A stretch of DNA of 24,712 nt from a virus (taxonomy: Duplodnaviria > Heunggongvirae > Uroviricota > Caudoviricetes), in the IMG/VR virus record IMGVR_UViG_2778261459_000007, positions 1 through 24,712 of that record. One strand, 5' to 3'. Every line of letters begins with the position of its first letter. Position 1 is the stretch's first letter. Shown piece after piece: positions 1,285 to 23,396 of this stretch. The position numbers were made by a program, and so were the translations under genes. The notes under the pieces were generated by a model that saw only the letters and a list, made by a program, of their open reading frames with translations, made no database searches and had not been told where the DNA came from.

Positions 1285-2334
1285 CTAAGATGATTGGTAC
1301 ACATTTTTTCTTGTATACCTGTCCTTAAGTCTTAGGAATGGCAACTCAAAATACTTAAACGACAGTGCAGAAATGGCGATAGTAAGAGAAATCTTGGTTA
1401 CATCCACCATTGGTCCAGAGATCCAAAGTAAATGCCCTCTGTACTGAAGAGAATCAACGATTTGAATTGCAAGCGGATGCCATATATACAATCCATAACT
1501 AATCTTTCCAATGTAAATTAATGGAGCAATAGTTAGAAACTTTGCTTTTATAACACCAGAAGCGATTACACCAATGAGACCTGCAAACATCATGTTTGAT
1601 GAAAGATAAAGGCTCTGGTTAGCAATTTCAGGACCAGTATGCCAGCCATATATTAGCGCACCGAATTTAACTACCGCGATAAACCAGAATATCCCTACAG
1701 TTAAGAGCAAACACGACACAATCATCATGACACGTTGTTTAACGGAAATAACAGCAATTATTGCCCCTATAAGAAGTGTGTCCATAGCTGAGAACAGCGG
1801 GGCAAACGATACTATTTGTGTATATTCTGCAAGATAAAATCGTGATGCGATCGCTACGCAAGAAAGTGCAACCGCAGATATAAAAATCCACTTTCTGTTA
1901 CAGAAGAAAACAACTAGTGGCCATAGTAAATAAAATTGTTCTTCTACAGCAAGTGACCATGTATGACCAAATTCCTGCCCTGGAACATACAGGAAGCCAT
2001 TCCATGCCATCGTGTAATTCTGTATATAGAAAATATAGTAAAACCAATTCTGCGTATCTTTTATTCCAAGATATGAGCAGTAAACGAATACAACTAATAT
2101 ATATAAATAATATAGCGGAAATATACGTAGACTTCTTCTTATATAGAAATTGGAAAAGAAGTTATTATCTTTCTTTGATTCTATCAATATCCTTGTAATC
2201 AAGAAACCAGAAAGCACAAAGAAAAAAGAAACACCAAGCCACCCCATTCCGAACCCAGGGATGCCTAAGTGATACAGGATAACACTAATAACACTGAACG
2301 CTCTTAGTCCATCAAGTTGCTGAATATGCTTCAT
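1285..2334 (-). CDS. Acyltransferase family 3 membrane protein, O-antigen acetyltransferase-like (lysogenic conversion, Oac-like)
   Basis: 349-aa ORF, very hydrophobic and multi-pass (MKHIQQLDGLRAFSVISVILYHLG... with the N-terminal GLR..H motif of Acyltransferase_3/OafA-type enzymes). Markedly AT-rich versus its flanks, roughly 35 percent versus 50 percent GC by eye. It sits between tailspike and int, exactly where Sf6 carries oac. Confidence 0.85.
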   Translation of the reverse strand: MKHIQQLDGLRAFSVISVILYHLGIPGFGMGWLGVSFFFVLSGFLITRILIESKKDNNFFSNFYIRRSLRIFPLYYLYILVVFVYCSYLGIKDTQNWFYYIFYIQNYTMAWNGFLYVPGQEFGHTWSLAVEEQFYLLWPLVVFFCNRKWIFISAVALSCVAIASRFYLAEYTQIVSFAPLFSAMDTLLIGAIIAVISVKQRVMMIVSCLLLTVGIFWFIAVVKFGALIYGWHTGPEIANQSLYLSSNMMFAGLIGVIASGVIKAKFLTIAPLIYIGKISYGLYIWHPLAIQIVDSLQYRGHLLWISGPMVDVTKISLTIAISALSFKYFELPFLRLKDRYTRKNVYQSS

Positions 2335-2365
2335 TTCATTATTTTAGAAAAAGTTAAAGGAGTGA

Positions 2366-2393
2366 AGTTTACCACACATCCAGCAACCCGCAA
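2366..2393 (-). promoter_or_regulatory. Candidate sigma70 promoter for the acyltransferase gene
   Basis: On the minus strand: TTGCGG (-35, 2393..2388), 16-nt spacer, TGgTAAACT (extended -10, 2374..2366), about 30 nt upstream of the ATG at 2334. Overlaps the tailspike stop codon. Confidence 0.3.
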
Positions 2394-2394
2394 C

Positions 2395-4434: not shown

Positions 4435-4555
4435 TTCATTGCTCCAGACGAATGATATGATGCAATCATGATGTGATTGCATACCGAAATGGTACTATTG
4501 AGTATTTATCCAGTAGGTTACGATGCCATTCCACCCAACTGGTGAGGCATCAAGG
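4435..4555. promoter_or_regulatory. Divergent promoter/operator region between tailspike and mnt
   Basis: 121-bp gap between divergent start codons. Contains inverted repeat ATGCAATC (4460-4467) / GATTGCAT (4475-4482), the 8-bp palindrome ATCATGAT (4465-4472), and a possible plus-strand promoter TTGCAT (4477-4482) - 17 nt - GAGTAT (4500-4505). Confidence 0.35.
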
Positions 4556-4816
4556 ATGTACAGCAAATACGACGAGGCGCAGTTTCACTTGAGACTTCCG
4601 CATGAACTCCACGCGAAAATTAAACATCGCGCGAAGATGAATAACAGGTCGCTGAACTCAGAGATAATTGCAGCGATTGAAGAATCATTGGATAAACAAA
4701 GCTCTGCATCAGTTTACATTGACGATGCAGAGCGTATGGCAGAACAACAATCGGATATGGTTAAGAAAATTGTCTTTGATACGCTCAGAGATTTATATAA
4801 AAAAGACAGCAACTAA
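4556..4816 (+). CDS. mnt: Mnt-like ribbon-helix-helix repressor (Arc/MetJ fold)
   Basis: Translation ...DEAQFHLRLPHELHAKIKHRAKMNNRSLNSEIIAAIEESLDK...DAERMAEQQSDMVKKIVFDTLRDLYKK aligns along its length with P22 Mnt as I recall it (DPHFNFRMPMEVREKLKFRAEANGRSMNSELLQIVQDALSK...NDAERLADEQSELVKKMVFDTLKDLYKK). Start set at ATG 4556, preceded by AAGGA; the ORF-track start at 4523 gives an unaligned N-terminal extension. Confidence 0.85.
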   Translation: MYSKYDEAQFHLRLPHELHAKIKHRAKMNNRSLNSEIIAAIEESLDKQSSASVYIDDAERMAEQQSDMVKKIVFDTLRDLYKKDSN

Positions 4817-4833
4817 CCATCCGTGGCTTTCCG

Positions 4834-7137
4834 TTACTTCTGGTTATCATCACTGTTCATCCAGTACATGATGCCTAGCCTTGATATGGTTTTCTTATCT
4901 GATTCTGGAAGTGAGTTGTAAAACGAGCGCCAAGCAGAAGAGCGTCTTACAGTTGTATCAACGATGCTTTCTGGTGCTTGTTTTACTGCCAGCCTTGCTG
5001 CTTTCTGGAATTCTGGTGAGCTAATTAGCTTTTCTGCAGATTCAATTGATTCAGCGCCGCCCATCGCCCTGATTTTGCTGGCGACTTTTGCCCCAATTTC
5101 TGACCCAGCAACAGCACCTACTGCACTGAACGGTCCTGACACAGTTGAACCAACCGCAGTGCCAATGCGTTGGGCATGGTTAGCAACAAATTCATTTGCC
5201 GCAGTGACGCGATTAAACCGTTTGACGAACTCGTTTAGTCTTCCTGTAGTTATCTCGTAAGATTTTGCGTCTTTGATAGCCTTTGCGACCTTATATACAT
5301 CGTTCAGACCTGACATAGTCTCTTTTGGTAAATGTCGGGCAAGATTGCGCATCTGCCCGTTTGCTAACATGTTTTGATACCAGTCAGCAAACCCTGCAGG
5401 ATTAAAATCAGCGCCACGTTTTCCGTTCGAAAGCATATCCCGAAGACCTGTTCCCAGTAGCTCGGTTCTTAGCTTCCTGGACGGCGTGTTTTGCATCAAT
5501 TCACGAAATCCTTTGGCATCGCCTTTCGACATTGCCTGTAGTGCTGTAGTTGCTTTGCGAGAAACATCACCGTTCAGCGTTCTGCCAGTTAGATTAATCA
5601 TTTGCTCTTCCATGCTTTTTCGCATCTGAACAAGCCTCTGAGCAACTTCAAAATCACGTAATGCATTTGTCTCTGACAGCGCCGCCTTTTGATCATCGGC
5701 GAGCGAACCGTAAAGCCTCGATAAAGCAGCGCGATCAGCATCTTTATATGGTCCAGAATTCTTATGAAGTGCATCACCAACAAGTCGTCGTTGCTTATTG
5801 AGATTTGCATAAGTTAATGCGCCGTTCTTGCCTGGATTAACTGCCCGAAAGACTCTCTTTTCAATAGGGTCAAGGTTTTTCATCCCGCCAAGATCTTCTG
5901 CCACCTGTTTGAGCATTGACCTTGTTGATGGCGCATCAATTTTTGCACCTGCAGGCATCGCCTTTTCAACATTGCGATAAAGCTGGTCGCTTCGTTTCAT
6001 CAGCGCAGACATTCTTCCATTGACCGTATCAATAAACTTGTCGCTCATACCAAGAGCATCTTTTGCACCGGAAACGTGATCAATTATCTCCCCCGCGCCC
6101 TGTGCTAGCTGCCTGATTGCTTCATTTTCCTGCACCTGTAGAGCAGAACCCGCACGGGACTTGATTGCTTGCTCAACTGCCTTGTATTGCTCGTTCCCGG
6201 AAAAGTGTGAAGGGAGTAATGAATCAACATTAAGCCTTTCAGCAGACTCCAGAACTTCAGCCTGAGGATTGATATCTAGTTCATCAAGCGATGAAGCGAG
6301 ATTTGGCCTTTTTTGTGCTGCTACTGTGCGAACGACTTCCTCTGGGTTCCTCGTCGCAGGCGTCATTGGTACACCTTGTGCTACTCTTGCCTCTGCGGCA
6401 TGAACCGCAGGATTTGTTGCTGCAGCGGCATCACCGGAGAATTGTGATGTTTCTGTTGGCGCAGTGGTCGCTCTCTGTGCAGATGTTTTATTGCCACTAA
6501 TTATATTTGATGCACCACGAACACCACGGGTAACGCCATTTATCAGGCCATGCGTAGCAATGTTAAGTCCGGCATTAATAGCGGCATTTTCGGCAAAATC
6601 ACCCCGTTGATTCGCCGCGTCAGCGAGAGAACCAATGACCATGTTTCCAGCTACACCTGCTCCAGGAACAAGATAACCGCCTATTGACTCTCCAGCTTGC
6701 GCATACGGATCCGTTGGCCGGTTAACTGGTCTATATACTTCATCAAGAATCTTTGGTCCATCAAAACTCTGAGATGCGGCATTAATGAGACTCGCCCCCC
6801 CCTGAAGAACGTCAAAAGGAATATTTACAAATCCTCTTACCGCCTGCTCGGCAATTTGACCTACGCTTTGCCCACCTGTTAGCCATTCTCCTGCACGCTG
6901 CATAAGTGATTTGTCTTGCTGAATGGTATCAGGAGATTGCCCTACTTCCTGCTGTTCTGTCTGCATTGAAGGCAATGGATAGGCATCATAGAAAGCTTGC
7001 TTAGCCTGATCTGCATTTTCTCCGGCTTGCGGGGCCACGACTTCATTGAAGTATTGCTCCTGAGCCTGCGCTTTTTGTTCTGGTGCTAACGCCTGATACT
7101 GTGGAGAGGCGATAACATCTTTCCATGCTTTAGCCAT
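4834..7137 (-). CDS. Ejection (E) protein, P22 gp16-like
   Basis: 767-aa ORF, third of three consecutive ejection-protein genes in the conserved gp7-gp20-gp16 order. Its start overlaps the upstream stop (TAATG). Ala/Gly/Gln-rich composition typical of ejection proteins. Call rests on position and composition, not sequence recall. Confidence 0.75.
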
Positions 7138-8432
7138 TAATCACCCCATAGTGAAGAAAAGTTACTGCCAGTAGTAGATTGTTGCCCTGGCATATTCTGA
7201 ACCGGCTCCTGATAATCAAACTGTTTTTTAACAGTGCTCAACTTGCTTTCAAGCTGATTTCTAATCTTTCCGATAGAGTCACGAAAAGCCTTTTCACTCA
7301 TTTTGGGGCTTAGGGCACCAACCGCATCGGATAATTTTTTACCCTCAGCATCTGAAAGAGCACCCATCCCCTTAAGGGACTGCACCATAGGAAGGAATGT
7401 TTGAGCTTTAAAGGTGTCGAGCCTTGCTTCAAAGTTAGCCGCATCAGAGCCAGGAACTGTCGGAAACGCTGAGCGAATTCCTACTGCTTTTGAAAGGCCG
7501 GGGCTTTGCTCTATCTCGTTGAGAGAATCAAGCGCAGTGCTGAACGTATCAACTGCACCCTGAGCGGCGGCCTGCCTGTCAGCGCGGGCTATGTCAGCCT
7601 TTTGCCGAACATCTGCCTGTTTCTGTTTTAGCTCTTCAAGCTTTAACTGATTGCTTTCTCTGGCTATCTGTCTGTCCAGAGCCTTTTCTTGTAATTCTGC
7701 TCTTTGTATTTCTCGGGAAAGAGCAGCATTCTGTGCGCTGATGTTCTGTCCACGTATCTGGATGTCCTGACCTCGAGCTATTAGTGCTTCTCCGGCCTGA
7801 TTGCTGCGGATTGTCTCTGCCAGTCTGCCTCGGTCAATCTCACGACCAGCCATCTTGTCCTGAACATTGAAGTAATCAATCGGACCAAGAGCAGCCATTC
7901 CAAGGTGATCAACAAACTCACCAAATCCTGAAGGGTTCTGCTGATACATCTGAGCAACGCTGTTAGGGTCAACACCGACGCGAGTCAGTTCCTTGGCGTT
8001 GTTTTGCAGCCATGATTGCATTGCTTCTGGAGACGATGACGCAAGGCGTGCGCCAGCCGCTAAGGTGCCGATAGAATTACGCTGCTCTTCATCAATGAAT
8101 CCCATGCCTTTACGAACGGATTCAATCTGGTCTGGATATTGAGTAGCCAACTGACGCAAAGCACCGCGATCACCAGACGCATAAGCATTAGCGTATGCCT
8201 GCTGAAATTCTTTCTGCCGCTGAGCCTGCTTTTCCTGCTGAAACACCCCAGCAATACCTGAAAGGCCTTGCAAAGCAGTCAGCCCAACATTGTTAGCGCC
8301 TGAACGCTCAATATCATTGTTCTGCCTGATAAGCTGAAGCGTATTGCTGATGTCATTTACGCTCGGAGCGTTTGAGTTGACGCCGCCGATACCAGCCAAC
8401 AATCCGCCATTTGATCCTTGCCAAGTAGCCAT
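7137..8432 (-). CDS. Ejection (E) protein, P22 gp20-like
   Basis: 431-aa ORF between the gp7-like and gp16-like genes; Q/A-rich central coiled-coil-like region. Positional and compositional match to P22 gp20 / Sf6 gp12. Confidence 0.75.
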
Positions 8433-8441
8433 GATTACCCC

Positions 8442-9134
8442 TTAAAACAACGAGCCAAGCAATCCGATACCAGCACCAATGCCAGCGCCCCAAGGTGTTG
8501 ATGTTCCCAAAAGGCTGGCAAGACCTGCACCGGCAATCGCACCAGACGTTCCGCCACTAATTGCTGTCTGAAGACTTGATGGTTTGTTGGCATTAGCAGC
8601 GGCAAGAGCTGCGCTTTGCTGTGCAATGCTGCTCATGTTGTTGGCGTACGTCTGCCCGGCGTTTGCCTGACCTTGCAGAGCACCAAGCCCAACGTTTGCC
8701 AGATTGTTGTAATTGCTCATCTGGTTTGACAACCAAGACTGACCGAGAGTCGGCGCGATCGTAGCCAGTTGATTGCTTGTGGCTGTCGAACCAAGCCCTC
8801 CCGTAGCCTCCGCAGCAGCAAGACTCTGGTAACGCGCCTGACCTGCAAGGTCTTTATACTGCTGAGAGTTGTAATACTGATTAAGTGCCTGCCCCTGACC
8901 TTCTAAACTGGAAAGGTTCTGAAGCTGGTTAACATACTGCTCCGCAAGAGGCGTGAACGGAGCAAGGTTTTTCATGATCGTCTGCCACTGCTGATTTTGC
9001 AGGTCTGCTGCATACTTCTGAGCTTCTGCGGCATACTTTGCGCTTTTATCAGAGCTACCACCTTTCCCGCCTTTTTCAGGGCACCAAGGTTCCTCGCCGC
9101 GCAGTTTTCTGCCCAGCTTAAATGCATATAACAT
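8442..9134 (-). CDS. Ejection (E) protein, P22 gp7-like
   Basis: 230-aa ORF. N-terminus MLYAFKLGRKLRGEEP..EKGGKGGSSDKSAKYAAEAQKYAADLQNQQ and the Gly/Ala-rich C-terminus match P22 gp7 (229 aa) as recalled. Confidence 0.85.
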   Translation of the reverse strand: MLYAFKLGRKLRGEEPWCPEKGGKGGSSDKSAKYAAEAQKYAADLQNQQWQTIMKNLAPFTPLAEQYVNQLQNLSSLEGQGQALNQYYNSQQYKDLAGQARYQSLAAAEATGGLGSTATSNQLATIAPTLGQSWLSNQMSNYNNLANVGLGALQGQANAGQTYANNMSSIAQQSAALAAANANKPSSLQTAISGGTSGAIAGAGLASLLGTSTPWGAGIGAGIGLLGSLF

Positions 9135-9136
9135 GG

Positions 9137-9592
9137 CTATCTCCCGTGATTCAGGAAGTCGATTAGTTCTTCGCGTGTGGCGCTGTAAAACGTCACGTCA
9201 TCCACGCCTTTGAAGTATTTTTTGATGGTTCCTACACGATTAAGGCCAATCATTGCGCAGTACATCTGACCGTGGCGGAATTTGCGTGCAGCGAACGATG
9301 TGACGCACTGAACGGTGGTGTTAGTCAGAATGTATCGCCAGAACGCCAGCCCGATTTCCTTGCTGAATCCGCGAATCTCTGGCAGGTACATGGCGTGGCA
9401 ATCGAATGTCAGCGGCTGAATCTCCTGATAGTAAACAATGCCGCCGAACTGCCCGTGCACGTTCACCTCAAAGTAACGGCAATCAGGTTTGTAGTCGTAT
9501 CCATCACCGTTGTTGCTCCCGGCAATAATGTCAGGGTGATTTCCGACTGCTTCGATCAGGTCAATGTTTCGCGTTGGTTTGAACTGAATCAT
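9137..9592 (-). CDS. P22 gp14-like head/DNA-stabilisation (ejection-associated) protein
   Basis: 151-aa ORF between the tail needle and gp7-like genes, the position of gp14 in P22/Sf6. Call is mainly by synteny. Confidence 0.7.
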   Translation of the reverse strand: MIQFKPTRNIDLIEAVGNHPDIIAGSNNGDGYDYKPDCRYFEVNVHGQFGGIVYYQEIQPLTFDCHAMYLPEIRGFSKEIGLAFWRYILTNTTVQCVTSFAARKFRHGQMYCAMIGLNRVGTIKKYFKGVDDVTFYSATREELIDFLNHGR

Positions 9593-10440
9593 TACTGCTC
9601 CGCGATTATCTTGATGGTTGTGGCAGTAAACGCCGCACCATTTGATTGAATGGTTAACGTGCTGCCATTTGTGGCAAGAAAGCCGTCTTTATCCACGCTG
9701 AAGAACGTAGCTAACAGGATGTTATCGGTTGTTGTCGCCGCATTACGACTGCTGACCAACGTGTCAGGAACAGAGCCGGAAAAGGTTAGCTGCATTGACC
9801 TGTTGGCGGTTCCGCTGGGCCACGTCCCGACAATCGACAGCTTGAAGAACAAGGTTTTGTTCTCGTTGAACACAACCATCTTGTTGTTAACGGTGTCGAA
9901 GAATGGTGCCAACGTTCCGGATGACGGCGTGAGCGTTTTCAGCAGGCTAACAAGGTTGGTCGGCGCTGTCGGGATGGTTACAGATACGCCAGAGTAAACA
10001 ACCTCTGACTTTTTGCGAGTAGTGGCATACTCCAGAGCATCAATGCGCGTTTCATGGTCTGAAAGCGTGTTTTGAATGGCGATAACTTCATCAGTCAGAT
10101 AATCAATATCGTTTTCTGCTGTCGTTAATCGGGAATCAAGGCCGACTATCGCCGATTCTGCGTTAGTGATCCTTGTTTCGTGGTCCTGAATCTTCGCTTC
10201 AGCTGATGCCAGTCGAATTTCGTGATCGACCAGAATCACATCCTGCTCATCGTTCCTGACTTGTGCGTCATAAGCGCCCTGCCCTGCTTCGTTGGCCTTG
10301 TTCGCCACGTTACCAACATCAGTACCCTGTGCAATAACGTACAGCAGATATGACTGCGAGAAGATATTGCGTGGAAGGACTGATGTATCGAGCCGCGTAG
10401 CCTGGATGATTACCGGCACATTGAGATTCGAATCCGCCAT
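9592..10440 (-). CDS. Tail needle (plug) protein, P22 gp26 / Sf6 gp9-like, with C-terminal knob extension
   Basis: N-terminus [64 protein letters not shown] is the conserved gp26 portal-plug domain, followed by heptad-like coiled coil. At 282 aa it is longer than P22 gp26 (233 aa), with a beta-rich C-terminal region of the Sf6-type knob kind. Confidence 0.9.
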
Positions 10441-11858
10441 TACTCAATCCTTATCTGGCAGCCTGACAGAGTGACAGGTGACTTCGTGATAACGCGCAAT
10501 TTGAAACCGACATTTTTCCTGATGCGCCCTACTCGCTTCCACAAAACGCGTTTGTCGTAAACGAACGGTTCATTCTGCTCAATCATCTGCTCACGCCCGT
10601 AATTGATGCCGTCAGTGGTTGCAGAGAGGAACAGGCGGTCAGCGTACTGCGCAACGCCAGTTGAAGATTCAACCTCAAGGTCGAACACCCGGGCGTTATC
10701 CGCTTTGAACAACGGAGTAAACAGCAGGTGTTCCTGCTGCTTGTCGTACTGGCTGCTGATATCGAACTGCAATTTCCCGGTCACGGATTCCAGCTTATCG
10801 CCGCACGTTATCTGATTGCCTTCGTAAATGAAGTCGATAGCGCGGTACACATCGTCATACAAGCCAGTTTTCAACACACACCATTGCGGACCATTGGCGC
10901 TTGAAGATGCGTCGTACACGAGAACATGGCGCGGAAGGTGGATAATCAGCAACTCATGAGCATCAAATCGCAGAGACTCCATCACACCCTCAGCCAGTTC
11001 ATCAGCAGTGTAGGAGCGGAGAATTTTCTCAATGCTCGCGCTGGCGATTGGTGATACCTGACCGGAGCCGATGATGTATACAGACGGCGCACCTGTTGCC
11101 GGATTGCTGATGAACGCATAGGAATCAGCGAATGGAGTTTTACAGTAGGTTCCGGCAATACCTTTCTGCACCATCAGCGATGGCTGTGCAACATACAAAG
11201 CGGCACCAACGGTGGTTGCGCCAGTAAGGGAGAAATATTCAATAGTCGATGAACCAAAGCAGACGATGAAGTCTCGCCATGTGCCGATGCCGATGATGCC
11301 GTCAGGCTGCGATTCTGCGCGATATTGTGCGCTGTATCGGTCAGGATGTGATTCGTCTTCAAGGTCAGTGATAAACCATGAATCAGTGCCGTCTTTTGAC
11401 CACGCATAACGCCCACGTAAGCGCGTAATGTCGCGTACTGAGCCTAACTCATACTGCGTGAATCCGCTGTCTGTAGGCCAGTTTGAGACGGTTTTAACCG
11501 TGCCATCATAGCGATACTCGACCAGTTGACCATTAACGCCTACCGCCTGTGATGTCCGACCATGCGCCATTGATACGCGACCACTTCCGGCAACATCACC
11601 GACTTCACTTTCGCCTTTGTACAGCTTGCCACCACACACGCGATAAACAGCATTCTGCGCCATGTTGTACTCGACACCGCGCGATACACCGTTCACATCA
11701 GAACGTTTGGCAATGCCCGGGAATGAGCGAAGATATCCGCTGCTGTTCAGGATTTCTTTGGGTGTAGCCAGCATATTCACTGGCAGATAGTCGATATAGT
11801 CGGCGTTTCGAAAGTCTTTGCCGACACCTTTCATAAGCGGAAGTTGCTGAATCGGCAT
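10440..11858 (-). CDS. Tail hub / tail accessory factor, P22 gp10-like
   Basis: 472-aa [52 protein letters not shown]... is near-identical in motif and length to P22 gp10 as recalled. Confidence 0.9.
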
Positions 11859-11867
11859 TTATTCACC

Positions 11868-12329
11868 TCACGTACTCGGCTCATCTTTCTCGATGTAAAA
11901 CCGATTCCACGTAAACGCGCTTTTGTTACCACTACCGCGAGGCATGTCATTTCGCCGCTCAAGTGGTGGTATTTTGGTTAAAGCGATACAGATTGTCTGA
12001 TATGCACTGTCAGCAGCGGTAAGGAGAGCGTCTGACGGCTGAATGACGTTATCCATGCACACTTGCACAGCGAGTTTCAAAGCGACGCCATCATTTGCCC
12101 ATGCAGGGATACCTGAATCATCGTCCGGTAACGGCATGATGCCGTTTTCTGTATCAGCAAACTGATACCCAAGCTCGATACCTTTAGCCTGCCATGCTGC
12201 CATCATGTCTTCGAGGTCATTAATGGCATCTTCAATTGCCTGAGGGTCAGCATCTGTCAACGTGGCATTGGAATACAGCCCAGCTTTTCGTAAAGCCTTT
12301 AGAACGAGATCACCCTTCGTTTTCGCCAT
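11868..12329 (-). CDS. Head-to-tail adaptor / tail accessory factor, P22 gp4-like
   Basis: 153-aa ORF. MAKTKGDLVLKALRKAGLYSNATLTDADPQAIEDAINDLEDMMAAW matches the P22 gp4 N-terminus (…KTKGDLV..ALRK…ATLTD.EPQ…DLE.MMA.W). Sits between the coat and gp10 genes. Confidence 0.85.
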   Translation of the reverse strand: MAKTKGDLVLKALRKAGLYSNATLTDADPQAIEDAINDLEDMMAAWQAKGIELGYQFADTENGIMPLPDDDSGIPAWANDGVALKLAVQVCMDNVIQPSDALLTAADSAYQTICIALTKIPPLERRNDMPRGSGNKSAFTWNRFYIEKDEPST

Positions 12330-12498
12330 CTTCTTCCGCCTTAGCCACTTTTTGCTTCGTTGCGGTTTCTTCAGGAGTTTTTACCCAGCCTTTTTTCAGG
12401 TGAGATTTAACTTCTTCGTCATCAACAATGATGTAATCGACAGCAAACTGACCACAGGTGATCATGTTGCCAGGCTTATAGAGCATTGTTCGTGCCAT
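12310..12498 (-). CDS. Small hypothetical protein between coat and gp4-like genes (62 aa)
   Basis: ORF with start ATG 12498 preceded by GGGAG at good spacing, directly after the coat terminator. Acidic C-terminus (AKAEEDGENEG). Overlaps the gp4-like start by 20 nt. The ORF-track version (from 12537) would start inside the terminator hairpin. No homolog recognised. Confidence 0.5.
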   Translation of the reverse strand: MARTMLYKPGNMITCGQFAVDYIIVDDEEVKSHLKKGWVKTPEETATKQKVAKAEEDGENEG

Positions 12499-12510
12499 TG
12501 TCTTCTCCCA

Positions 12511-12532
12511 ATAAAAATGGGGCCGAAGCCCC
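12511..12532 (-). terminator. Intrinsic terminator immediately downstream of the coat gene
   Basis: Minus-strand RNA GGGGC-UUCG-GCCCC (perfect 5-bp GC stem, UUCG tetraloop) followed by AUUUUUAUU. Lies 8 nt after the coat stop codon. Confidence 0.7.
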
Positions 12533-12539
12533 ACCAAAA

Positions 12540-13799
12540 TTACTGCCCGGCAATAACGATGCCCGTATATTCAGGAACAAGTACAGAGCAACCGTACAGA
12601 GTGGTGAAACGAGCAGTGGTTACGCCTTTGATGTGGTCGAAGGCGTAAGACATGATCAGCGTAGCGCCCTGCTCGGTGGTTGCTGTCATTACCTGTGGAC
12701 CCTGACCAGTCGGGAACGCCAGTTTGCCGTACATCAGTTCAACAGAACCATCAGCCCAGAACAGGTTAGCCGGTGCGGCATTTTTGTTGAGAATGGTGAT
12801 TGCTGCAGTTTCTGCCGGCTTGGCATCGACGTTTGCATATGGACGGCTCGCAACATCGGCATTTCCAACAGGGAGAATCTTTGGAGAGATTGTTACGGTG
12901 GTTCCTGCTGTGTCTACTGCCAGAACGCGGAATACCTGCGGCTGCCCGGTGGTATCTTTGGTGATCTGGTGTACGGAATTCACACCTGCGATGGTAAACG
13001 CATCGCCAACCTGCAAGCCTTTAGCAGATACCGTAATGGTCCCCTGTCGGTTATCAACAGGCATGCCATTTGAATCTTTCGCTTCAACCTTGTGTTCAGG
13101 TTGATTTGATACTGTCAAGGTTTCAGTGCTTCCTGCCGGTAATCGACCGGAAATATCGGTCTTGTAGCTATCGAAGGACGCAACCGGAGGGATTTGCGCT
13201 TTTTCGTATGCTGTCAGGGTTGCGCCCTGAGCATAGGCACGGTGACCAAGCTCGCCAGCAAGGTCTTTGTAGTTGAAGGGGTTCCAGAAAGAGCGACGGT
13301 TGATACCCTGAGGTACACCAATCGCCGTCATGGTGGCATCAATACCTGCCGCACAGTTCCACAAATCACGGCCCTGTGAACCTGTGGTTGAGTCAGCCAT
13401 CGTGATCACGTTAGTAGCACGCTGCGTAACCATGGAAATCAGGTCAGAGTCAATCTGTGCAGCAAGGCGCATACCTGCGGCGCGACCAGCTTCAGTTTTA
13501 TGTTCCGGGTCACGCATTTCACGCGCATCCAGAGTGTACAGAATGTTTTTCGGCTCCTTGAACACAGAAGGAACAAGGCGCTGAACCAGTGCTGTTGGCG
13601 TTTTGCCGCTGAGGTCTAGGCCTTCCTCAATGTTCATGTGGTAATGCTGCGGACGATACAGAACATCACCTGCTCGCTGCATTGCTGTATCACCGGGACG
13701 GAATTTTTTAGCGTTACGGGAAACTACGCAGGCGGCCTCAAAGCCTTCAACGTAGTTTTCGAACATGATTTCAAGGTCTTTTGCTAATTGGTTAGCCAT
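12540..13799 (-). CDS. Major capsid (coat) protein, P22 gp5 / Sf6 gp5-like (HK97 fold with insertion domain)
   Basis: 419-aa ORF directly downstream of the scaffold gene and followed by a strong terminator. Size and position match the P22 (430 aa) / Sf6 coat protein. Confidence 0.9.
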   Translation of the reverse strand: MANQLAKDLEIMFENYVEGFEAACVVSRNAKKFRPGDTAMQRAGDVLYRPQHYHMNIEEGLDLSGKTPTALVQRLVPSVFKEPKNILYTLDAREMRDPEHKTEAGRAAGMRLAAQIDSDLISMVTQRATNVITMADSTTGSQGRDLWNCAAGIDATMTAIGVPQGINRRSFWNPFNYKDLAGELGHRAYAQGATLTAYEKAQIPPVASFDSYKTDISGRLPAGSTETLTVSNQPEHKVEAKDSNGMPVDNRQGTITVSAKGLQVGDAFTIAGVNSVHQITKDTTGQPQVFRVLAVDTAGTTVTISPKILPVGNADVASRPYANVDAKPAETAAITILNKNAAPANLFWADGSVELMYGKLAFPTGQGPQVMTATTEQGATLIMSYAFDHIKGVTTARFTTLYGCSVLVPEYTGIVIAGQ

Positions 13800-13817
13800 G
13801 CTTAATGCTCCGATAGG

Positions 13818-14711
13818 TTATTTTTTTGCCTTTTTAGCGGCGAAATACGGCGTCCAGTCACCAGTTTCCAGCGCCTTGGCTTTCAATTTGACGAGGTTGT
13901 TGATTACTGCGCCGTTGCTCCCCTTAACTGTCGGGGTTGTGGCTGCCGTGGTTTTTGCTTTTGGCATGATTCTGGCCTTCGATTCGATACGTTCCAGCAG
14001 ACGACCAATTGCTACGGGGTTGGTAGCTTCTGCCAGTTGCTTGCGCAGTTCAGCGTTGCGACCGAGTGCCAGAACAACGATTTCCGGCTTCTCTGACTCA
14101 AACAGGATCGCGTTTTGTGTCTCGATGGGGATTTCCTCGAGTACGGCCTGCTCAGCTTCCTGATAGCCAGGAACTTTGAGAGCCTTAACACGTTGCTGAT
14201 ATTTGGATAATCGCTCTTGATAGGCAGCCTGAAGCTCCTGCTCCTTCTGCTTGCGAGCCATCTCCTGTTGCTGGTACTTGCCGTTATCCTCTGCCCACTT
14301 AGCCATGCGTTGCTGGTAGATTTCTTCATCGAAACCGATGTCCTCATCATCCAGTTTTGGCATTCGCGGTGGTTGAGTGATTACCGGCTGCTGCTCGACG
14401 GGTTTCTGAGACTGACGCATCAGCTCCTTCAGCTCACGGTCTTTCTCTTTAATCGTCTTGCGCAGGTGTTTTACCAGTCCATGCTCTGCGCCATCTTCGC
14501 TGGTTGGCGAATCCAGCTTTTCGTCACCAAAGTAGAATTCCTGTTCTGATTCGTCGTCATCAGTTTCAGTAGCTTCCTCTGCATCATTGCCGGAGGACTC
14601 ACTGCCATCTTCTGTTTCGACTTCTTCAGCCAGTTCGACATCATCAGGAATCTGCTCTGACGCGTCGGTTTCGATTTCAACTTCTGGTGTGTTTTCTGCC
14701 ATCTGGTCCAT
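13818..14711 (-). CDS. Scaffolding protein, P22 gp8-like
   Basis: 297-aa ORF between portal and coat. Extremely acidic N-terminus, Q/E/K-rich helical middle, basic C-terminal tail (…GDWTPYFAAKKAKK) typical of the coat-binding helix-turn-helix of P22-like scaffolds. Confidence 0.85.
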   Translation of the reverse strand: MDQMAENTPEVEIETDASEQIPDDVELAEEVETEDGSESSGNDAEEATETDDDESEQEFYFGDEKLDSPTSEDGAEHGLVKHLRKTIKEKDRELKELMRQSQKPVEQQPVITQPPRMPKLDDEDIGFDEEIYQQRMAKWAEDNGKYQQQEMARKQKEQELQAAYQERLSKYQQRVKALKVPGYQEAEQAVLEEIPIETQNAILFESEKPEIVVLALGRNAELRKQLAEATNPVAIGRLLERIESKARIMPKAKTTAATTPTVKGSNGAVINNLVKLKAKALETGDWTPYFAAKKAKK

Positions 14712-14801
14712 TTGTTACCCCTGTTTACTCGATGTTCAGCCCATCGGAAGGCAATAGGGTGCCAGGCCTCATAAAGACAGCCATTGCACGTTATGGGTTA
14801 A

Positions 14802-17000
14802 TTACTGCTGTGGTTGTTGCTGAGTTGATTTTTGCAGGATGCTGCTGATGTCCATGCGCTGCGCATGGCCCTGTGCCTGACTTTTCAGGACAAGCTCTGC
14901 ATCAGCACGGGCATTATCTCCTTGCTGTTGCTGGAACTGTCCGAGCAGTTTCAGCGCCTCACGGATATCAGATTTTTGCTGGCTATCGGCAGATGCGAGG
15001 ATTTTCACAACATTTGCCGCAGCAACCTGAGCATCCGTCTGTGCCTGGAATGCTTTAACCTGAATGGCTGCTTGTTCGTTCTGCGCTTTCTGCAATTCAG
15101 CCTGACCAGCAAGAAGCTGACCTTGCGCAGCAACCATAGCCGGATCTGGCTGACTGGCCTGTTGTTGTTTCGCCTGTTCAACCATCTGCTGTTCTTCAGG
15201 CGTTCTCGGCTTGATAACGCCAGACAGAAGCAACTGATTGCGGTTGTATTCTTTAAGGTCGTCCATCCCTTCGCCGTCCATATTGTCGAGAATCATCGAC
15301 GATACAAGGTCGTGCTTCGGCGTTCCTGGTGGGATAAGTGCCAGCATGGAAAGTAACGACTTAACCGTTGCGTCACGGCGAGTAGCGAACGACTGACCGA
15401 CATCGACAGTCACTTCATAGTTACCCTGCGAAAGGTCGTTAAGCGCGATAACCTGCCCTGTCTGACGGTCAACCACTTCACCAGTCATCAGCGCCACGTC
15501 ATCGCTGCCGTCCTCATTAACGATACGCATAGGCGTATCACTGCCATAGACCTCACGCGCCATAGAAAGCCACACAACGCCAGCGCGACGCATGGATTTA
15601 GCCATGTTGTCCATGTAGATATAGGACTGCGTGTCCATCCTGTTAAAGATGCTATCAACGGTATCGGTAGCGACGTTGCTCGGCATGTTCTCAAGCTGCG
15701 ACGCACCTGTAATTTGCTGAATAGCCGTTCCGGTGTACTGCAATAGTCCGGCAAGAGCAGGAGGCATTTGTGTTGGGGGTGTCCAGCCAGCAACCTGAGC
15801 TTCTGAAATGACTGTTCCGTTTTTGTCCTTCTTGCTGGTCATAGGAAGAACTGCAGGTCTTTTCTTATTCCTCTCTGCCCAGTGATTCATTAATGGGCCG
15901 GGAATGAAATCAACATCCACGATAGGAATACCATCACCGCCAGCCTGAGTAGCGTTATCTGCAATCATGGAAACCATCAGGTTCTCAAGACGCTGAGCAT
16001 CCATCGCTTTTGCTGCGTGGCCTTCGATTCGCTCCTGATTATCAACAAATGAGCGACGCCCATATACCGGGATGAGAGGAATATGTTCGCCCGGAATACG
16101 CTTCGGTTCTTCCAGCCATTCAGCGCCAGACAGAAGACCGCAATAAACTCTGCGTTTCTTCACTGTCCGCTCACCAATCAGTTCGAATGCGCCATCGGTC
16201 AGCTCGTCGACAATATCTTTGATTTGCTCTTCATCATAGATTGCCGTTTCTCCGCTAACAGGGTTGCGCCATGCCGTGAGCTTCACCTTCTCTATGCGAA
16301 CTTCGTAGTAGCGACCAACATAGATAGCATCAGGGGTTGACCAGTCATATTGAGTGCCAGTGTCATCACGAGAAAGGCTTGCCGCGATGGAATCAGGGTA
16401 TTCAGCCTCGAACGCTTTAGGCGTCATGGAGAACATTTCCATAGCCCACATAGCATCAGAGCGGTCATATTGCTTGCTGTCCTGATCGAAGAAGACGCAT
16501 GTGGCCGGGTCGTAAACAGGAAGAAGGCTGATGCGTCGCTGCTCGTTACTTGGGTCCATTTCATCTTCGTAATCGGCACACATGCGGAAACAACCGAATC
16601 CGCCCGTTACAGCATCATCAAATGCGTTATCACACGCTTCGCCACCGGATGTTTCCTGATAGTCAGCGCGGAATTTGCCGTTCATCTTTTCGGCTAACGC
16701 TTCCGATGCCTTATCGTCCTTCGGCCTGAATTTAACGCTGATGCGATTCTGTCGATACTCGCCAATGATGCGATCACATTCACGGGCAATCTTATTCAGT
16801 TCAAAGCGCGGGTAATGCTCAAACCTTCCTTCATCAAATGAGTAACCAGCGTTTGTGCTGCCTTCCCACTGTGCGCCGGACACCCGGACGAAACGTTGAG
16901 CCTCAATAATCTGCTCACGCATATCCTGCGTTGCTGACCAGGCATTATCAAAGTTGCACAGCACCTTGCGATGCCAGTCAGTCATCTTTTTTTCTGCCAT
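14802..17000 (-). CDS. Portal protein, P22 gp1-like
   Basis: 732-aa ORF immediately downstream of large terminase. C-terminal region (…PEEQQMVEQAKQQQASQPDPAMVAAQGQLLAGQAELQKAQNEQ…RMDISSILQ…) matches the long Q-rich helical barrel of P22 portal as recalled. Confidence 0.92.
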   Translation of the reverse strand: MAEKKMTDWHRKVLCNFDNAWSATQDMREQIIEAQRFVRVSGAQWEGSTNAGYSFDEGRFEHYPRFELNKIARECDRIIGEYRQNRISVKFRPKDDKASEALAEKMNGKFRADYQETSGGEACDNAFDDAVTGGFGCFRMCADYEDEMDPSNEQRRISLLPVYDPATCVFFDQDSKQYDRSDAMWAMEMFSMTPKAFEAEYPDSIAASLSRDDTGTQYDWSTPDAIYVGRYYEVRIEKVKLTAWRNPVSGETAIYDEEQIKDIVDELTDGAFELIGERTVKKRRVYCGLLSGAEWLEEPKRIPGEHIPLIPVYGRRSFVDNQERIEGHAAKAMDAQRLENLMVSMIADNATQAGGDGIPIVDVDFIPGPLMNHWAERNKKRPAVLPMTSKKDKNGTVISEAQVAGWTPPTQMPPALAGLLQYTGTAIQQITGASQLENMPSNVATDTVDSIFNRMDTQSYIYMDNMAKSMRRAGVVWLSMAREVYGSDTPMRIVNEDGSDDVALMTGEVVDRQTGQVIALNDLSQGNYEVTVDVGQSFATRRDATVKSLLSMLALIPPGTPKHDLVSSMILDNMDGEGMDDLKEYNRNQLLLSGVIKPRTPEEQQMVEQAKQQQASQPDPAMVAAQGQLLAGQAELQKAQNEQAAIQVKAFQAQTDAQVAAANVVKILASADSQQKSDIREALKLLGQFQQQQGDNARADAELVLKSQAQGHAQRMDISSILQKSTQQQPQQ

Positions 17001-17001
17001 A

Positions 17002-18417
17002 TCAACCTACACCACAAGGAATTGAGTAACTGGAATAGTCGGGTTGCGCAGCCGACTCCGGGCAATGCATACACATCATCAGCGCATCAGCCAGGTTAGG
17101 AGATGGAATACCGAGCTTCTGCTTCATTTCGACCTTAGTCATAAGCTCCAGCTTCCCGTTGTTATTGAATTTGCGCTGAATCTGCGTCAGTTCTGCAAAC
17201 AGCTTCTCCAGCATATTCTCGCCTATCGCTTCTTTGTCGAAACTCAGCATGTCGTCGGGGTCTGCATACTCACCGTGGACAACCGCCCGATATGTCAGAT
17301 ACAGCCTGTCAGCCAGCGCGTAATAGAATTGCGCTCGCTTATTGCGGAACACATCGCCAATAGTACGAACATTGTCGCCCTGTACGACTTCATCAGACCA
17401 TGCTCCGGCCTGATAAGGCGCATCTTCATCGAATGGCGATTCGCTGCCCTTGAACATCGTGGCGGTGATTTTCTTACCGGAGAATGCTTCCGTTGTCTGT
17501 CTGCGTAGCCCGGCACCAACGCCATCGCCATCCCACAGGTAGTGGTCAGCGCCGTCTTCAATCGCCAGCGAAGTAGCCCAGTCAGCCCCCTCGTTGATGT
17601 CCATCAGCAGGCCTTCGGCAATGCGTTTAACTACCGAACCGTGGCGCGATGCATAACCTTTAGCATCCGGTCCTGTATCTGACGGGTCATGCGCAGAAAC
17701 AACCGCACCTTTCGCTTTCCACCCGAGTTTCGTGTGCGCATCGGTTGCAGCTTCAAGCCATTCACGTTTGATGATTGCCATATCACTTGCGCTCACTGGC
17801 TCACCCAGCCAGATGTGACGATACAGTGTCGGATTTCTGCGTTTGCACTCTTCCATCTCCAGACGGAGAACTTCAGGAAAGTGCGGGTTGTCGGTGTAGT
17901 TCACCGTCAGCAGACAAATATCATCTGGAGGATTTACAACGAATCGCTGATAGGTATCGTCGAGGATGTTCTTCGGGTTAAAGCTCACCCATATTTCAGA
18001 GAACGGCTTACGGATGGTTGGTATCAGGATATCCCATGATTCCTTCGTTACCGCTTCCGCTTCTTCCACCCAGCAGATATCAATACCTTCTAGCGATTTA
18101 ATCTTCGTCGGGTTGTTTTTGATGCCGTAGAACATGAACTCAGCATTCGTTCCGAGATGACGAATCATGGAACGCTGAATTTCAAACTCAGCCGAATACC
18201 CTTCACGCTCGATGGTATCTTCAAGCAACCGGATTACCGAATCGCTGATACTGTTTTGCAGTTCACGAGCGCAAAGAATACGCACAGGCTGCCGACGTGC
18301 CGCTTCAACAAGCAGCCTAGCAATTGCCCATGACTTACCGCTACCTCGACCGCCTTTGGCGACTTTGTAGCGATGCGCCTCAATGAACGGTTCAAAGATA
18401 GGATTAATCGAGGTCAT
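17002..18417 (-). CDS. Terminase large subunit (ATPase/nuclease), Sf6 gp2 / P22 gp2-like
   Basis: 471-aa ORF. Walker A motif VAKGGRGSGKSWA near the N-terminus and acidic nuclease region in the C-terminal half. Start overlaps the small terminase stop (ATGA). N-terminal sequence matches Sf6 large terminase as I recall it. Confidence 0.95.
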   Translation of the reverse strand: MTSINPIFEPFIEAHRYKVAKGGRGSGKSWAIARLLVEAARRQPVRILCARELQNSISDSVIRLLEDTIEREGYSAEFEIQRSMIRHLGTNAEFMFYGIKNNPTKIKSLEGIDICWVEEAEAVTKESWDILIPTIRKPFSEIWVSFNPKNILDDTYQRFVVNPPDDICLLTVNYTDNPHFPEVLRLEMEECKRRNPTLYRHIWLGEPVSASDMAIIKREWLEAATDAHTKLGWKAKGAVVSAHDPSDTGPDAKGYASRHGSVVKRIAEGLLMDINEGADWATSLAIEDGADHYLWDGDGVGAGLRRQTTEAFSGKKITATMFKGSESPFDEDAPYQAGAWSDEVVQGDNVRTIGDVFRNKRAQFYYALADRLYLTYRAVVHGEYADPDDMLSFDKEAIGENMLEKLFAELTQIQRKFNNNGKLELMTKVEMKQKLGIPSPNLADALMMCMHCPESAAQPDYSSYSIPCGVG

Positions 18418-18836
18418 TTTCCGAATAGAGTGCTCATCGGTGATGTTTCAATCTGGATTGCGCCGCCGTCCTTACCGACAAGCTCGTTAGTTACCTTGTC
18501 GCCATACTTACGGGGATTCATTCGGGCCAACGCCCATTTGCGTGTATCAACGCGAAGTCTTGCCTTTGCCACTTCAGCAGCATCTGGAATCGCATTGTCA
18601 GCAATTTCGAATATCTCTTCGAAAATAGAATCAGCTCGTGCCTCAGTTGCCTTCGCGTACTTGTCGCGAAAATCCTCATGCTTTGCCAACCAGCGGAAAA
18701 CAGTGGACTTATCCGGCATACCAGGACGCTTACATACTTTCAGCAAACTCTCGCCAGAAGAAAGCAACGAGCAGATATCGTCAGCCACCTCCGGCATATA
18801 ATCAGAGGGGCGACCAGCTTTTGGTTCAGTCGCCAT
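18414..18836 (-). CDS. Terminase small subunit, Sf6 gp1-like
   Basis: 140-aa product MATEPKAGRPSDYMPEVADDICSLLSSGESLLKVCKRPGMPDKSTVFRWL… with an N-terminal HTH-like DNA-binding domain; matches Sf6 gp1 as recalled. The ORF-track start at 18842 (MNM…) is equally possible. Confidence 0.9.
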   Translation of the reverse strand: MATEPKAGRPSDYMPEVADDICSLLSSGESLLKVCKRPGMPDKSTVFRWLAKHEDFRDKYAKATEARADSIFEEIFEIADNAIPDAAEVAKARLRVDTRKWALARMNPRKYGDKVTNELVGKDGGAIQIETSPMSTLFGK

Positions 18837-19040
18837 ATTCATCTCACTTAATTTTTATTTCAGGTTGAGGACTCTTTCGCGCCTTCAATCAGTGACTGCT
18901 TCAGCAATTCGAGTGTGCCAATCGCCTCGCATAAACTGATTTCACCATCGTAATCATGAATGACGCTTTCCATCCGCTCGTATAGCTCTTGAGTAATTGG
19001 GAATTTCTTCTCCTTACCAAAATTGATTACGCGGCTCACA

Positions 19041-20938: not shown

Positions 20939-21411
20939 ACCTCAATCTCTCTGACCGTTCCGCCAGCCTCTTTGAATTTTGCAATCAGGCTGTCAGCCTT
21001 ATGCTCGAACTGACCATAACCAGCGCCCGGCAGTGAAGCCCAGATATTGCTGCAACGGTCGATAGCCTGACGAATATCACCGCGATCAATCATCGGCAAA
21101 GCGCCACGCTCCTTAATCTGCTGCAATGCCACAGCGTCCTGGCTTTTGGGAGAGAAGTCTTTCAGGCCAAGCTGCTTACGGTAGGCATCCCACCAACGGG
21201 AAAGAAGCTGGTAACGTCCGGCGGCTGTTGATTTGAGTTTTGGGTTTAGCGTGACAAGTTTGCGAGGGTGATCGGAGTAATCAGTGAATAGTTCTCCCCC
21301 TACAATGACGTCATAACCATGATTTCTGGTTTTCTGTCGTCCGTTATCAGTTCCCTCTGACCACGCCAGCATATCGAGGAACGCCTTACGTTGATTATTG
21401 ATTTCCACCAT
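20935..21411 (-). CDS. R: Endolysin R (lytic transglycosylase), lambda-type
   Basis: 158-aa [52 protein letters not shown]… is essentially lambda R as recalled, including the catalytic Glu in the WSEGT context. Confidence 0.95.
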
Positions 21412-21718
21412 CTTCTACTCCGGCTTTTTTAGCAGCGAAGCGTTTGATAAGCGAACCAATCGAGTCAGTACCGATGTAGCCGATGAACACGCTCGTTATA
21501 TAAGCGAGATTGCTACTTAGTCCGGCGAAGTCGAGAAGGTCACGAATGAACCAGGCGATAATGGCGCACATCGTTGCGTCGATTACTGTTTTTGTAAACG
21601 CACCGCCATTATATCTGCCGCGAAGGTACGCCATTGCAAACGCAAGGATTGCCCCGATGCCTTGTTCCTTTGCCGCGAGAATGGCGGCTAACAGGTCATG
21701 TTTTTCTGGCATCTTCAT
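21395..21718 (-). CDS. S: Holin/antiholin S (S107/S105 dual-start), lambda-type class I holin
   Basis: 107-aa [46 protein letters not shown]…, essentially lambda S. Met1-Lys2-Met3 dual start is present: antiholin S107 from 21718, holin S105 from 21712. Confidence 0.95.
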
Positions 21719-21724
21719 GTCTTA

Positions 21725-21738
21725 CCCCCAATAAGGGG
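21725..21738 (-). promoter_or_regulatory. sdi RNA stem-loop upstream of S (controls the S107/S105 start ratio)
   Basis: Minus-strand CCCCUUAUUGGGGG hairpin immediately 5' of the S start codons, as in lambda, where it occludes the SD for Met1. Confidence 0.75.
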
Positions 21739-22154
21739 ATTTGCTCTATTTAATTAGGAATAAGGTCGATTACTGATAGAACAAATCCAGGCTACTGTGT
21801 TTAGTAATCAGATTTGTTCGTGACCGATATGCACGGGCAAAACGGCAGGAGGTTGTTAGCGCAACCTCATGCCGCCCGCTTTCACGAAGATCATGTGTAG
21901 AAGGCCGCAGCATAACTATCACTGATGAATTCAGGACATCCAGTGGCTACGGCTCAGTTTGGATTGTGGCGACCGGTGCTGATCTCCGGTTTGCTGCAAC
22001 TGCCTACAGCTGGCTACGTGGCCATACCGAATCCAGCGAAAGATTCTTGCCCTTACACATCAGCCTGTGCATTCACCACAACGATAAGAGCACTGCGCGG
22101 CACCTTTCACCAATTCCGCGAGGTCTGCGGGTTCAATGCTCTTACCTGTTGTGC

Positions 22155-22200
22155 AAACAAAAAAAGCCACCGTTGCAACTTAAGAGTCACTAACGGCAGC
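22155..22200 (-). terminator. Late terminator tR' (the target Q-modified RNA polymerase reads through)
   Basis: Minus-strand RNA GCUGCCGUU - 17-nt loop - AACGGUGGC followed by UUUUUUUGUUUG. The sequence after the U-tract (GCACAACAGGTAAGAGCATTGA…) resembles the lambda sequence just downstream of tR' as I recall it. Confidence 0.55.
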
Positions 22201-22204
22201 TTAT

Positions 22205-22240
22205 GCGAATAGTGTTGCTCATTTTCTCAATGATGTCAAC
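22205..22240 (-). promoter_or_regulatory. Candidate late promoter pR' with Q-utilisation region
   Basis: Perfect -35 hexamer TTGACA (22240..22235) 6 nt after the Q stop codon. No strong -10 at 17 bp (AACACT is the best candidate). Placement between Q and tR' matches lambdoid late-promoter architecture. Confidence 0.35.
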
Positions 22241-22245
22241 ACGTT

Positions 22246-22734
22246 CTACGCTACATGTTTAATTTTCTCTACACGTTTCCGGTTTTTAAACGCACTATCC
22301 AGAACCGGGTAAATCATAAACAACGAGGCATTGAGGATTTCGTCAACTTCCCGACGACAGGTTGCGAGCGATGGTTTTTGAATGCGCCCGCCGCCCCGGC
22401 ATAACATCTTGCGAGGTCTTGCGACGCGATGATAGTAAGATGCAATGGCGTGCTTGGAAGAACCGTGGGCGTAGTAGCTGAGGAGGATGCCAAAGGCTTT
22501 CTTGTCAATGTACATGACGGAATCGACGACCTGAGAAATCAACATTCCATCATCATCATTGCACATTGGCCTTGTCATAACTCTTCCCGGCTCTACGCTC
22601 TCCATGAACTTCGCTATTACGCTGCTCATGCGCTTTTCCAGACGACCTGAATAAACCCATGCGCCCCACAGTTCAAGCCAGCCATTCAGCCACTCATGCT
22701 GTTCTTTGGTGAGGTTTAGTTCTCTTATGCCCAC
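22246..22734 (-). CDS. Q: Late-gene antitermination protein Q (non-lambda type; length and sequence suggest the phage 21 Q family)
   Basis: 162-aa ORF immediately downstream of the nin region and upstream of pR'/tR' and the lysis genes. Not lambda Q (207 aa). Cys-containing motif (CRGGGR…C) consistent with a Q-family zinc-binding element. Family assignment is from memory and position. Confidence 0.75.
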
Positions 22735-23396
22735 GCGCCTTCTCCCTGTACCTGAATCAATGTGAGATTTCCGCAGAACACTGCGCCGGTATCGATATAC
22801 ATTTGGTTGGCAAATTTAAGTGGTTTCACTGCTGGCGTATGACCAAAGATGAACGTGTCCGCGCCTTTGATTTCTTTCACGATCCCGTCTTGTGAGTTGC
22901 TGATTCGTTCGCGGTTCCAGATTACCTGCTGATGATCAACTGGCTTTCCAAACTCGTATTCGTCACAAGGATAATCGGCGTGGCAGATGACATATTTTTT
23001 TCCTTTACTCACCAGTTCGATGATTAACGGAAGTTCATCTGCTTTATGGGCAAGAGCTTTAGCCAGAATTTCTTTGTCGTAATCGAGATTAAAGAACCAG
23101 CCACCGCCATTAAGCAGCCAGTGATTAACGTTTCCACGCTCTGATAAGCCATCAATCATCATTTGCTCATGGTTTCCACGTACAGCTCTGAACCAGGGGA
23201 ATGTGATTAATTCCAGGCATTCAACGTTCTCTGCACCACGATCAACCAAATCGCCCACCGAGATAAGCAGGTCTTTTTTGTTGTCGAATCCAATCGTATC
23301 CAGTTTGTTCATCAGGTTCGTGTAGCATCCGTGCAGATCGCCAACTACCCAAATATTTCGGTATTTGCTGCCATCAATTTTTTCGTAATAGCGCAT
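22725..23396 (-). CDS. ninI: Ser/Thr protein phosphatase (lambda PPase / NinI, ORF221)
   Basis: [59 protein letters not shown]…GNHE… is essentially lambda phosphatase, with the GDxHG, GDxVDRG and GNHE metallophosphatase motifs. Start set at ATG 23396; the ORF-track start at 23471 is an upstream extension overlapping ninH. Confidence 0.95.

Follow-up and report, generated by a model that had tools for sequence, protein, structure and literature searches.

The analysed window is a 24,712-nt stretch of a tailed phage genome (Caudoviricetes; IMG/VR record IMGVR_UViG_2778261459_000007), in which positions 21719..22245 coincide exactly with the intergenic region between the antiterminator gene Q and the holin gene S, and the neighbouring genes are all on the minus strand. 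Read along that strand, the TAG stop codon of Q (22248..22246) is followed by AACGTG TTGACA TCATTGAGAAAATGAGC AACACT ATTCGC A TAAGCTGCCGTTAGTGACTCTTAAGTTGCAACGGTGGCTTTTTTTGTTTG, and the features of the region, from Q through its late promoter, pause element and terminator to the leader of S, are collected in Table 1. Beyond S lie an R-like ORF of 158 aa (no Pfam match, DNA 97.6% lambda-like) and Rz (Pfam PF03245).

Table 1. Position and basis of assignment of the features between Q and S and of the two flanking genes.
Feature	Position in window	Strand	Basis
Q21 antiterminator gene, 162 aa	22246..22734	-	PDB, Pfam and PHROG matches
pR' -35 element TTGACA	22234..22239	-	'minus_35_signal pR' late promoter' of phage 21, OL657228
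QBEu, upstream Q-binding subsite, ATTGAGAA (canonical ATTGAGCA)	22224..22231	-	QBE annotation of OL657228
QBEd, downstream Q-binding subsite, AATGAGCA, intact	22216..22223	-	identical to phage 21
pR' -10 element AACACT, 17-bp spacer	22211..22216	-	'minus_10_signal' of OL657228
Transcription start +1 (A)	22204	-	homology transfer from TSS at OL657228 39541
Sigma-dependent pause element (SDPE) TAAGCTG, +2..+8	22197..22203	-	SDPE annotation of OL657228
tR' intrinsic terminator	22155..22202	-	RNAfold and identity to annotated terminators
Right mosaic junction: U-tract and 5' arm of long leader hairpin	22133..22165	-	91% to lambda 44775..44807
Non-lambda leader segment, 164 nt	21969..22132	-	no BLASTN match to lambda
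Lambda-type S leader: hairpin upstream of start codon, Shine-Dalgarno site, dual start	21719..21968	-	97.6% lambda
Lambda-type holin S, 107 aa, Met1-Lys2-Met3 dual start, first late gene	21395..21718	-	PF05106, E = 2.4e-30

A preliminary description of this DNA, made from the letters alone, had called the 162-residue protein a Q unlike that of lambda. BLASTP indeed detected no similarity to lambda Q (E = 4.5), and the protein proved identical to PDB 6JNX_P over 162/162 residues (100%; the same 'Antiterminator Q protein' is found in 6JNX/6JNY) and to 6P18_P over 161/161 residues (6P18-6P1C are likewise Q21 structures). Its membership of the Q family, for which a BLASTP comparison had been proposed as a check, was upheld, and matches to Pfam PF06530 (Phage_antitermQ; E = 8.8e-25, 87.4 bits versus a cutoff of 26) and phrog_943 (E = 4.9e-90) were obtained as well. 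By residue identity, the protein is Q21, an antiterminator of the Q21 family. Antisense to Q and inside the gene (22409..22441, plus strand) we observed a CII-type box (TTGCGAGGTCTTGC) together with a -10-like TAAGAT, whose positions are those of the paQ promoter and the CII binding site annotated in the phage 21 record OL657228; antisense control of Q expression seems to have moved along with the module.

The TTGACA hexamer had previously been placed 6 nt after the Q stop, and it does lie there (22239..22234, with 6 nt between), being the annotated -35 element of phage 21 pR'. OL657228 carries curated features for the -35, the Q-binding element (QBE, composed of QBEu ATTGAGCA and QBEd AATGAGCA), the -10, the start site, the SDPE and the terminator, beyond which come tRNA-Asn, tRNA-Thr and then the S21 pinholin. 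Independent agreement with this transferred numbering comes from Shi et al. (2019): in their description the QBE falls between the -35 and -10 elements, and its two TGAGCA repeats have their C:G pairs at -21 and -13. The -10 element, AACACT, matches the consensus at only 3/6 positions and overlaps the final base of QBEd, which bears out the earlier remark that the -10 is not obvious and that Q binding shapes this promoter. A consensus scanner called neither a promoter nor a terminator here, a result that is uninformative because the -10 is too weak and the terminator stem has a bulge. Among pR'21-type promoters the -10 varies (AACACT, AATGAT, AATCAT, AATATT and AATTAT, for example at loci L143, L138 and L136).

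Pausing 18 bp downstream of phage 21 pR' has been reported (PMC9191641), and the corresponding pause at +18 is expected here at window position 22187. The tR' hairpin (22202..22164, +3..+41) is predicted by RNAfold to have a free energy of -20.2 kcal/mol, with 17 pairs and a single bulge (z = -5.2, equalled by 0/200 shuffles), and U7GUUU follows directly (U-tract 22165..22159), so that hairpin plus U-tract span +3..+46. The hairpin thus begins 32-34 nt past the -35 hexamer, close to the 35-40 nt given in the earlier description, and with about 46 nt from the start site to the U-tract, the terminated RNA is predicted to measure some 47-50 nt. The same hairpin is annotated as tR' in four independent records, those of phage 21 (OL657228), Nil2, Sf6 and HK75, and a 50-nt RNA is annotated at this place in the older phage 21 record AJ237660. 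The earlier proposal that the Q-independent transcript is much shorter than the lambda 6S RNA is therefore correct and already known: the terminator annotation of OL657228 credits Guo, Kainz and Roberts (1991; PMID 1704887), and the short terminated RNA of phage 21 has been on record since that year. Likewise, the paper on StxS lists phage 21 among the phages that produce short terminated RNAs. By sequence, the locus unites a Q family protein, a sigma70 promoter right after Q, a -10-like pause element and an intrinsic terminator, an arrangement of the Q21 type that is kept in >150 phage contigs.

To delimit the module, we compared the window with phage 21 and lambda. Against OL657228 it shows 98.5% identity over 594 nt (22747..22154) without gaps, from ninH/ninI into the U-tract, and only three differences were found between the 3' end of Q and the U-tract: a synonymous GCG/GCA change in the last Q codon, the change at -21 discussed below, and G/A just after the U-tract. 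An alignment with the pR'-tR' regions of phage 21 and lambda, which had been suggested as a check, matched phage 21, and the lambda pR'-tR' interval has no counterpart here. On the left, ninI (22800..22732) is 95.7% identical to lambda, with lambda-like sequence reaching 22732 and phage 21 identity starting at 22747, which puts the left junction at the start of Q; a recombination or homology border is marked near the Q start in both the lambda and the phage 21 records. On the right, the junction falls within the U-tract, where phage 21 identity stops at 22154 and lambda similarity sets in from 22165. The earlier claim that the swapped unit is Q plus pR' thus stands and can be extended: as delimited by these identities, the swapped module is 22747..22154 and comprises Q, promoter, pause element and terminator, ending in the U-tract. 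The accompanying claim of lambda-like flanks holds in part, for ninI, for the 33 nt past the U-tract (91%) and for the last 250 nt before S (97.6%, as across the whole right flank, 21968..21300), but fails for 22132..21969. Beyond these points, the preliminary description had missed that the element is an exact textbook one, that 164 nt of the leader are not lambda-like and that the Q-binding site carries a unique substitution. Similar borders are marked in CUS-3, where the 64 nt after Q are annotated as boundary sequence bsq4 and the 241 nt before S as bsq3, the latter corresponding to the S leader of the window.

Further downstream, window 1..19000 is taken up by a late operon of P22-like (Lederbergvirus) type, in which the ORFs encoding terminase, portal, scaffold, coat, injection proteins and tailspike are uninterrupted; this part resembles CUS-3, JEP4 and several E. 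coli prophages in patches of 94-96% identity; no record covers as much as 80% of the window, the best being an E. coli genome with 76%. Taken together, the cassette is very probably a phage 21-type Q-dependent late-gene switch set within a P22-like mosaic prophage, and no observation speaks against this identity. The element itself is the already known phage 21 switch, with genetics from 1991 and structures from 2019.

The 440-nt leader between tR' and S is highly structured as a whole (fold z = -4.8). A long hairpin lies just past tR' (~22075..22156, minus strand), and the basal stem of this hairpin, formed by CACAACAGGTAAGAGCATTG and CAGTGCTCTTATCGTTGTGG, is kept relative to lambda, whereas the apical part has been replaced. 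RNase III processing sites have been mapped in the lambda late leader. The non-lambda segment is common to JEP4 and HK629, and it occupies the slot that holds tRNA-Asn and tRNA-Thr in phage 21 and Sf6 and tRNAs plus stx in Stx phages. ARAGORN found 0 tRNAs in the window, as against 2 in phage 21, 2 in Sf6 and 3 in Nil2, and within the Q-S interval tRNA genes are present in phage 21, Sf6 and Nil2 and lacking in the window, JEP4, HK75 and lambda. An Rfam search gave no credible match and no tRNA match, returning at E <= 1 only a meaningless snoRNA hit. We also considered the non-lambda segment (taken as 164-185 nt) as a decayed tRNA-Asn/tRNA-Thr pair but obtained no statistical support for this: aligned globally with the tRNAs of phage 21, the segment reached z = 1.9, a score equalled by 21/500 shuffles.

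Among the ORFs of the interval, those of 95 aa and 75 aa (plus strand) and 36 aa (minus strand) have no PHROG family. A GTG-start ORF of 50 aa (21922..21770, minus strand) matches phrog_22751 (E = 1.8e-27), a family of unknown function; it has an internal stop or a lost stop codon in 7/52 distinct sequences of relatives (9/73 homologs), and the third-position bias of its substitutions is weak. This ORF is probably a recurrent annotation artefact of a conserved leader and not a gene. The earlier statement that there is no ORF and no convincing tRNA between tR' and S can thus be kept, in that ARAGORN reports none and the ORFs of the interval are unconvincing as genes. The S gene that follows is near-identical in DNA to lambda S.

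The published Q21 mechanism (Yin 2019; Shi 2019), with TGAGCA repeats in the QBE and a ring formed by the upstream protomer, can be applied to this locus by virtue of its sequence identity, and would run as follows. Without Q, pR' (TTGACA, 17 bp, AACACT) would fire constitutively from 22204, and RNA polymerase still carrying sigma70 would pause near +18 through re-binding of sigma region 2 to the -10-like TAAGCTG (+2..+8); after the pause, the polymerase would terminate at the hairpin and U-tract (+3..+46), leaving only the 47-50-nt RNA. With Q, two Q21 protomers would occupy the two direct repeats that lie between the -35 and -10 elements, and the upstream protomer would fit a ring-shaped nozzle into the RNA exit channel while the polymerase is paused, the nascent RNA threading through this nozzle. 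As the nozzle would admit only single-stranded RNA, pause and terminator hairpins would be blocked, and the Q-loaded polymerase would cross the leader to reach S, R and Rz and, beyond them, the genes for head and tail. In this scheme almost the whole nascent RNA would be terminator, and the release point would lie only ~28 nt past the pause. Since the terminator starts within the first few transcribed bases, Q would have only a single pause at which to load.

Within the promoter, one base departs from phage 21: at -21 (window 22225), A stands in place of C (plus strand: T), so that QBEu reads TGAGAA for TGAGCA and the -21 C:G pair becomes A:T; the downstream repeat, 8 bp away, retains TGAGCA. 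To place this change among natural promoters, we collected 150 of them, falling into 19 haplotypes, with a pattern in which none of the 29 bases separating the -35 element from the start site was fixed, and found C at -21 in 150/150 and C at -13 in 150/150. TGAGC is almost invariant in both repeats, even in promoters with another -10 and with a Q only 76-83% identical. A pattern allowing either base at -21 returned 123 copies, with C in all. The exact A form occurred nowhere else in the IMG/VR and JGI metagenome contigs, and megablast with a 41-nt query, in which the variant is spanned by every 28-mer, gave no hit among 5,426 complete E. coli genomes and 50,697 phage records; a control query with C hit 216 places in 199 E. 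coli genomes. In the closest E. coli copy the -21 base is the sole difference over the 91 nt of the window that were compared. Q carries no compensating change for the -21 A. One other natural singleton within QBEu, G-22A, was seen at locus L143, and in three contigs the canonical promoter is followed by a different leader (ATATGCTGCTGCTTTTGC...), with a different hairpin further downstream.

Shi et al. (2019) report that substitutions of the C:G pairs at -21 and at -13 each affect Q-dependent antitermination, and describe both subsite interactions as essential. Yin et al. describe the upstream subsite as of intrinsically low affinity, its protomer being held mainly by a large interface between protein and polymerase and by cooperativity with the downstream protomer, so that one lost base contact might be tolerated. 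With the -21 base invariant, an effect of substitution published, the A form absent elsewhere and Q unchanged, the chances seem about evenly balanced that this copy would load Q, and antiterminate, less efficiently than that of phage 21.

How the locus should be read depends both on the identity of the promoter and on the status of this one base. The weak -10 (3/6) and the scan that called neither promoter nor terminator might suggest that TTGACA is a chance hexamer, that the hairpin merely terminates the Q gene and that the late promoter lies elsewhere; yet the sequence is that of the experimentally used pR'21, whose -45..+34 scaffold gives transcripts and Q-engaged complexes, the curated -35, QBE, -10, TSS, SDPE and terminator of phage 21 are all present, and the architecture is kept across >150 phage contigs, so that this reading is effectively refuted. 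For the phage 21-type switch that remains, the A at 22225 could be a sequencing or assembly error over a canonical phage 21 sequence, as befits a single-base singleton that is missing from all other sequences searched and that lengthens an A run (GAGCAAAT to GAGAAAAT), but a substitution is less typical of such errors than a homopolymer indel, and we regard an error as improbable.

If the base is genuine, the cassette might still be fully functional and the A a neutral polymorphism, with a weakened upstream subsite tolerated because the upstream protomer is placed mostly by contacts to RNA polymerase and to the downstream protomer. The downstream late genes do appear intact, and the L143 change provides a second natural singleton in QBEu, whereas the conservation of C in 150/150 natural promoters, including those whose partner Q is 76-83% identical, the effect of substitution and the essential subsite interactions described by Shi et al., and the lack of any other A form in the collections searched all weigh against neutrality, which we consider rather unlikely, though less so than an error. 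In a further reading, to which we give somewhat less than even chances, the upstream Q21 subsite has suffered a natural knock-down mutation in a P22-like prophage that is intact in other respects. The -21 A is possibly an attenuating point mutation, private to this copy, and it is the sole unusual feature of the cassette.

Such a base, if real, would be a ready-made natural test of the weight of the upstream subsite in vivo. Either the lysis/late switch would be throttled at the step of Q loading, a way of taming a prophage with every gene intact, or the -21 contact would be dispensable in vivo, against the in vitro result. The invariant TGAGC in the 150 promoters, together with the sister Q type described below, lends support from natural variation to the structural model. 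In P22-like phages, boundary sequences have already been annotated for mosaic junctions of this kind at the borders of Q and S. A natural test of the upstream subsite would have some relevance to Stx phages, in which the same Q21 cassette drives toxin genes.

Lambda has its Q cassette in the same slot as the window, between ninI and S, with flanking DNA 96-98% identical, and follows the same logic: the promoter is constitutive, the polymerase makes a sigma-dependent pause, the QBE is placed between the -35 and -10 elements, and the late genes are preceded by a terminator. The two differ in Q, which is unrelated in sequence, in the terminated transcript, which is the 194-nt 6S RNA in lambda, and, according to Shi et al. 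(2019), in an extra -35-like element that lambda requires and that is absent from pR'21. With phage 21, the window shares a Q of 100% identity and every base of the -35, QBEd, -10, start site, pause element and terminator, whereas phage 21 has C at -21 in QBEu, and downstream its tRNA pair, S21 pinholin and SAR endolysin stand in place of the tRNA-less leader and lambda-type S, R and Rz of the window. Stx2c/Stx2a phages with the q21 allele (2851, Nil2, 1717) carry the same Q21-pR'-tR' at 97-98% identity, but there the terminator is followed by tRNA genes and stx2, with no lambda S leader. Like StxS and lambda 6S, the short RNA predicted here would be constitutive and terminated just past a Q-controlled late promoter; unlike them, it would consist almost entirely of the terminator hairpin. 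To our knowledge, no trans-acting role has been described for the short RNA of the phage 21 type.

Among P22-like and HK97-like phages, Sf6, HK75 and CUS-3 (loci L001, 668..1250, L002 and L162, respectively) share the pause element and terminator as well as the TTGACA -35 and the overall layout, and their Q is 86% identical to Q21, with residues 1-94 identical and the differences clustered in the DNA-binding half. These include H95R and R128N, at base-contacting residues named by Shi et al., and the promoters concerned have TTAGCCA twice for the two TGAGCA repeats and CATAAT as -10. Judged from these sequences, Q and repeats of this sister type constitute a different specificity pair, a natural specificity switch; because both change together while pause element and terminator are kept, the specificity unit is Q plus QBE, which supports the earlier assertion that Q works with its cognate promoter. 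JEP4 (99.4-99.7% identical across the region) and the prophage of E. coli ETEC1721 are the same mosaic of Q21 cassette, tRNA-less leader and lambda-type S, and differ from the window in carrying the canonical C at -21.
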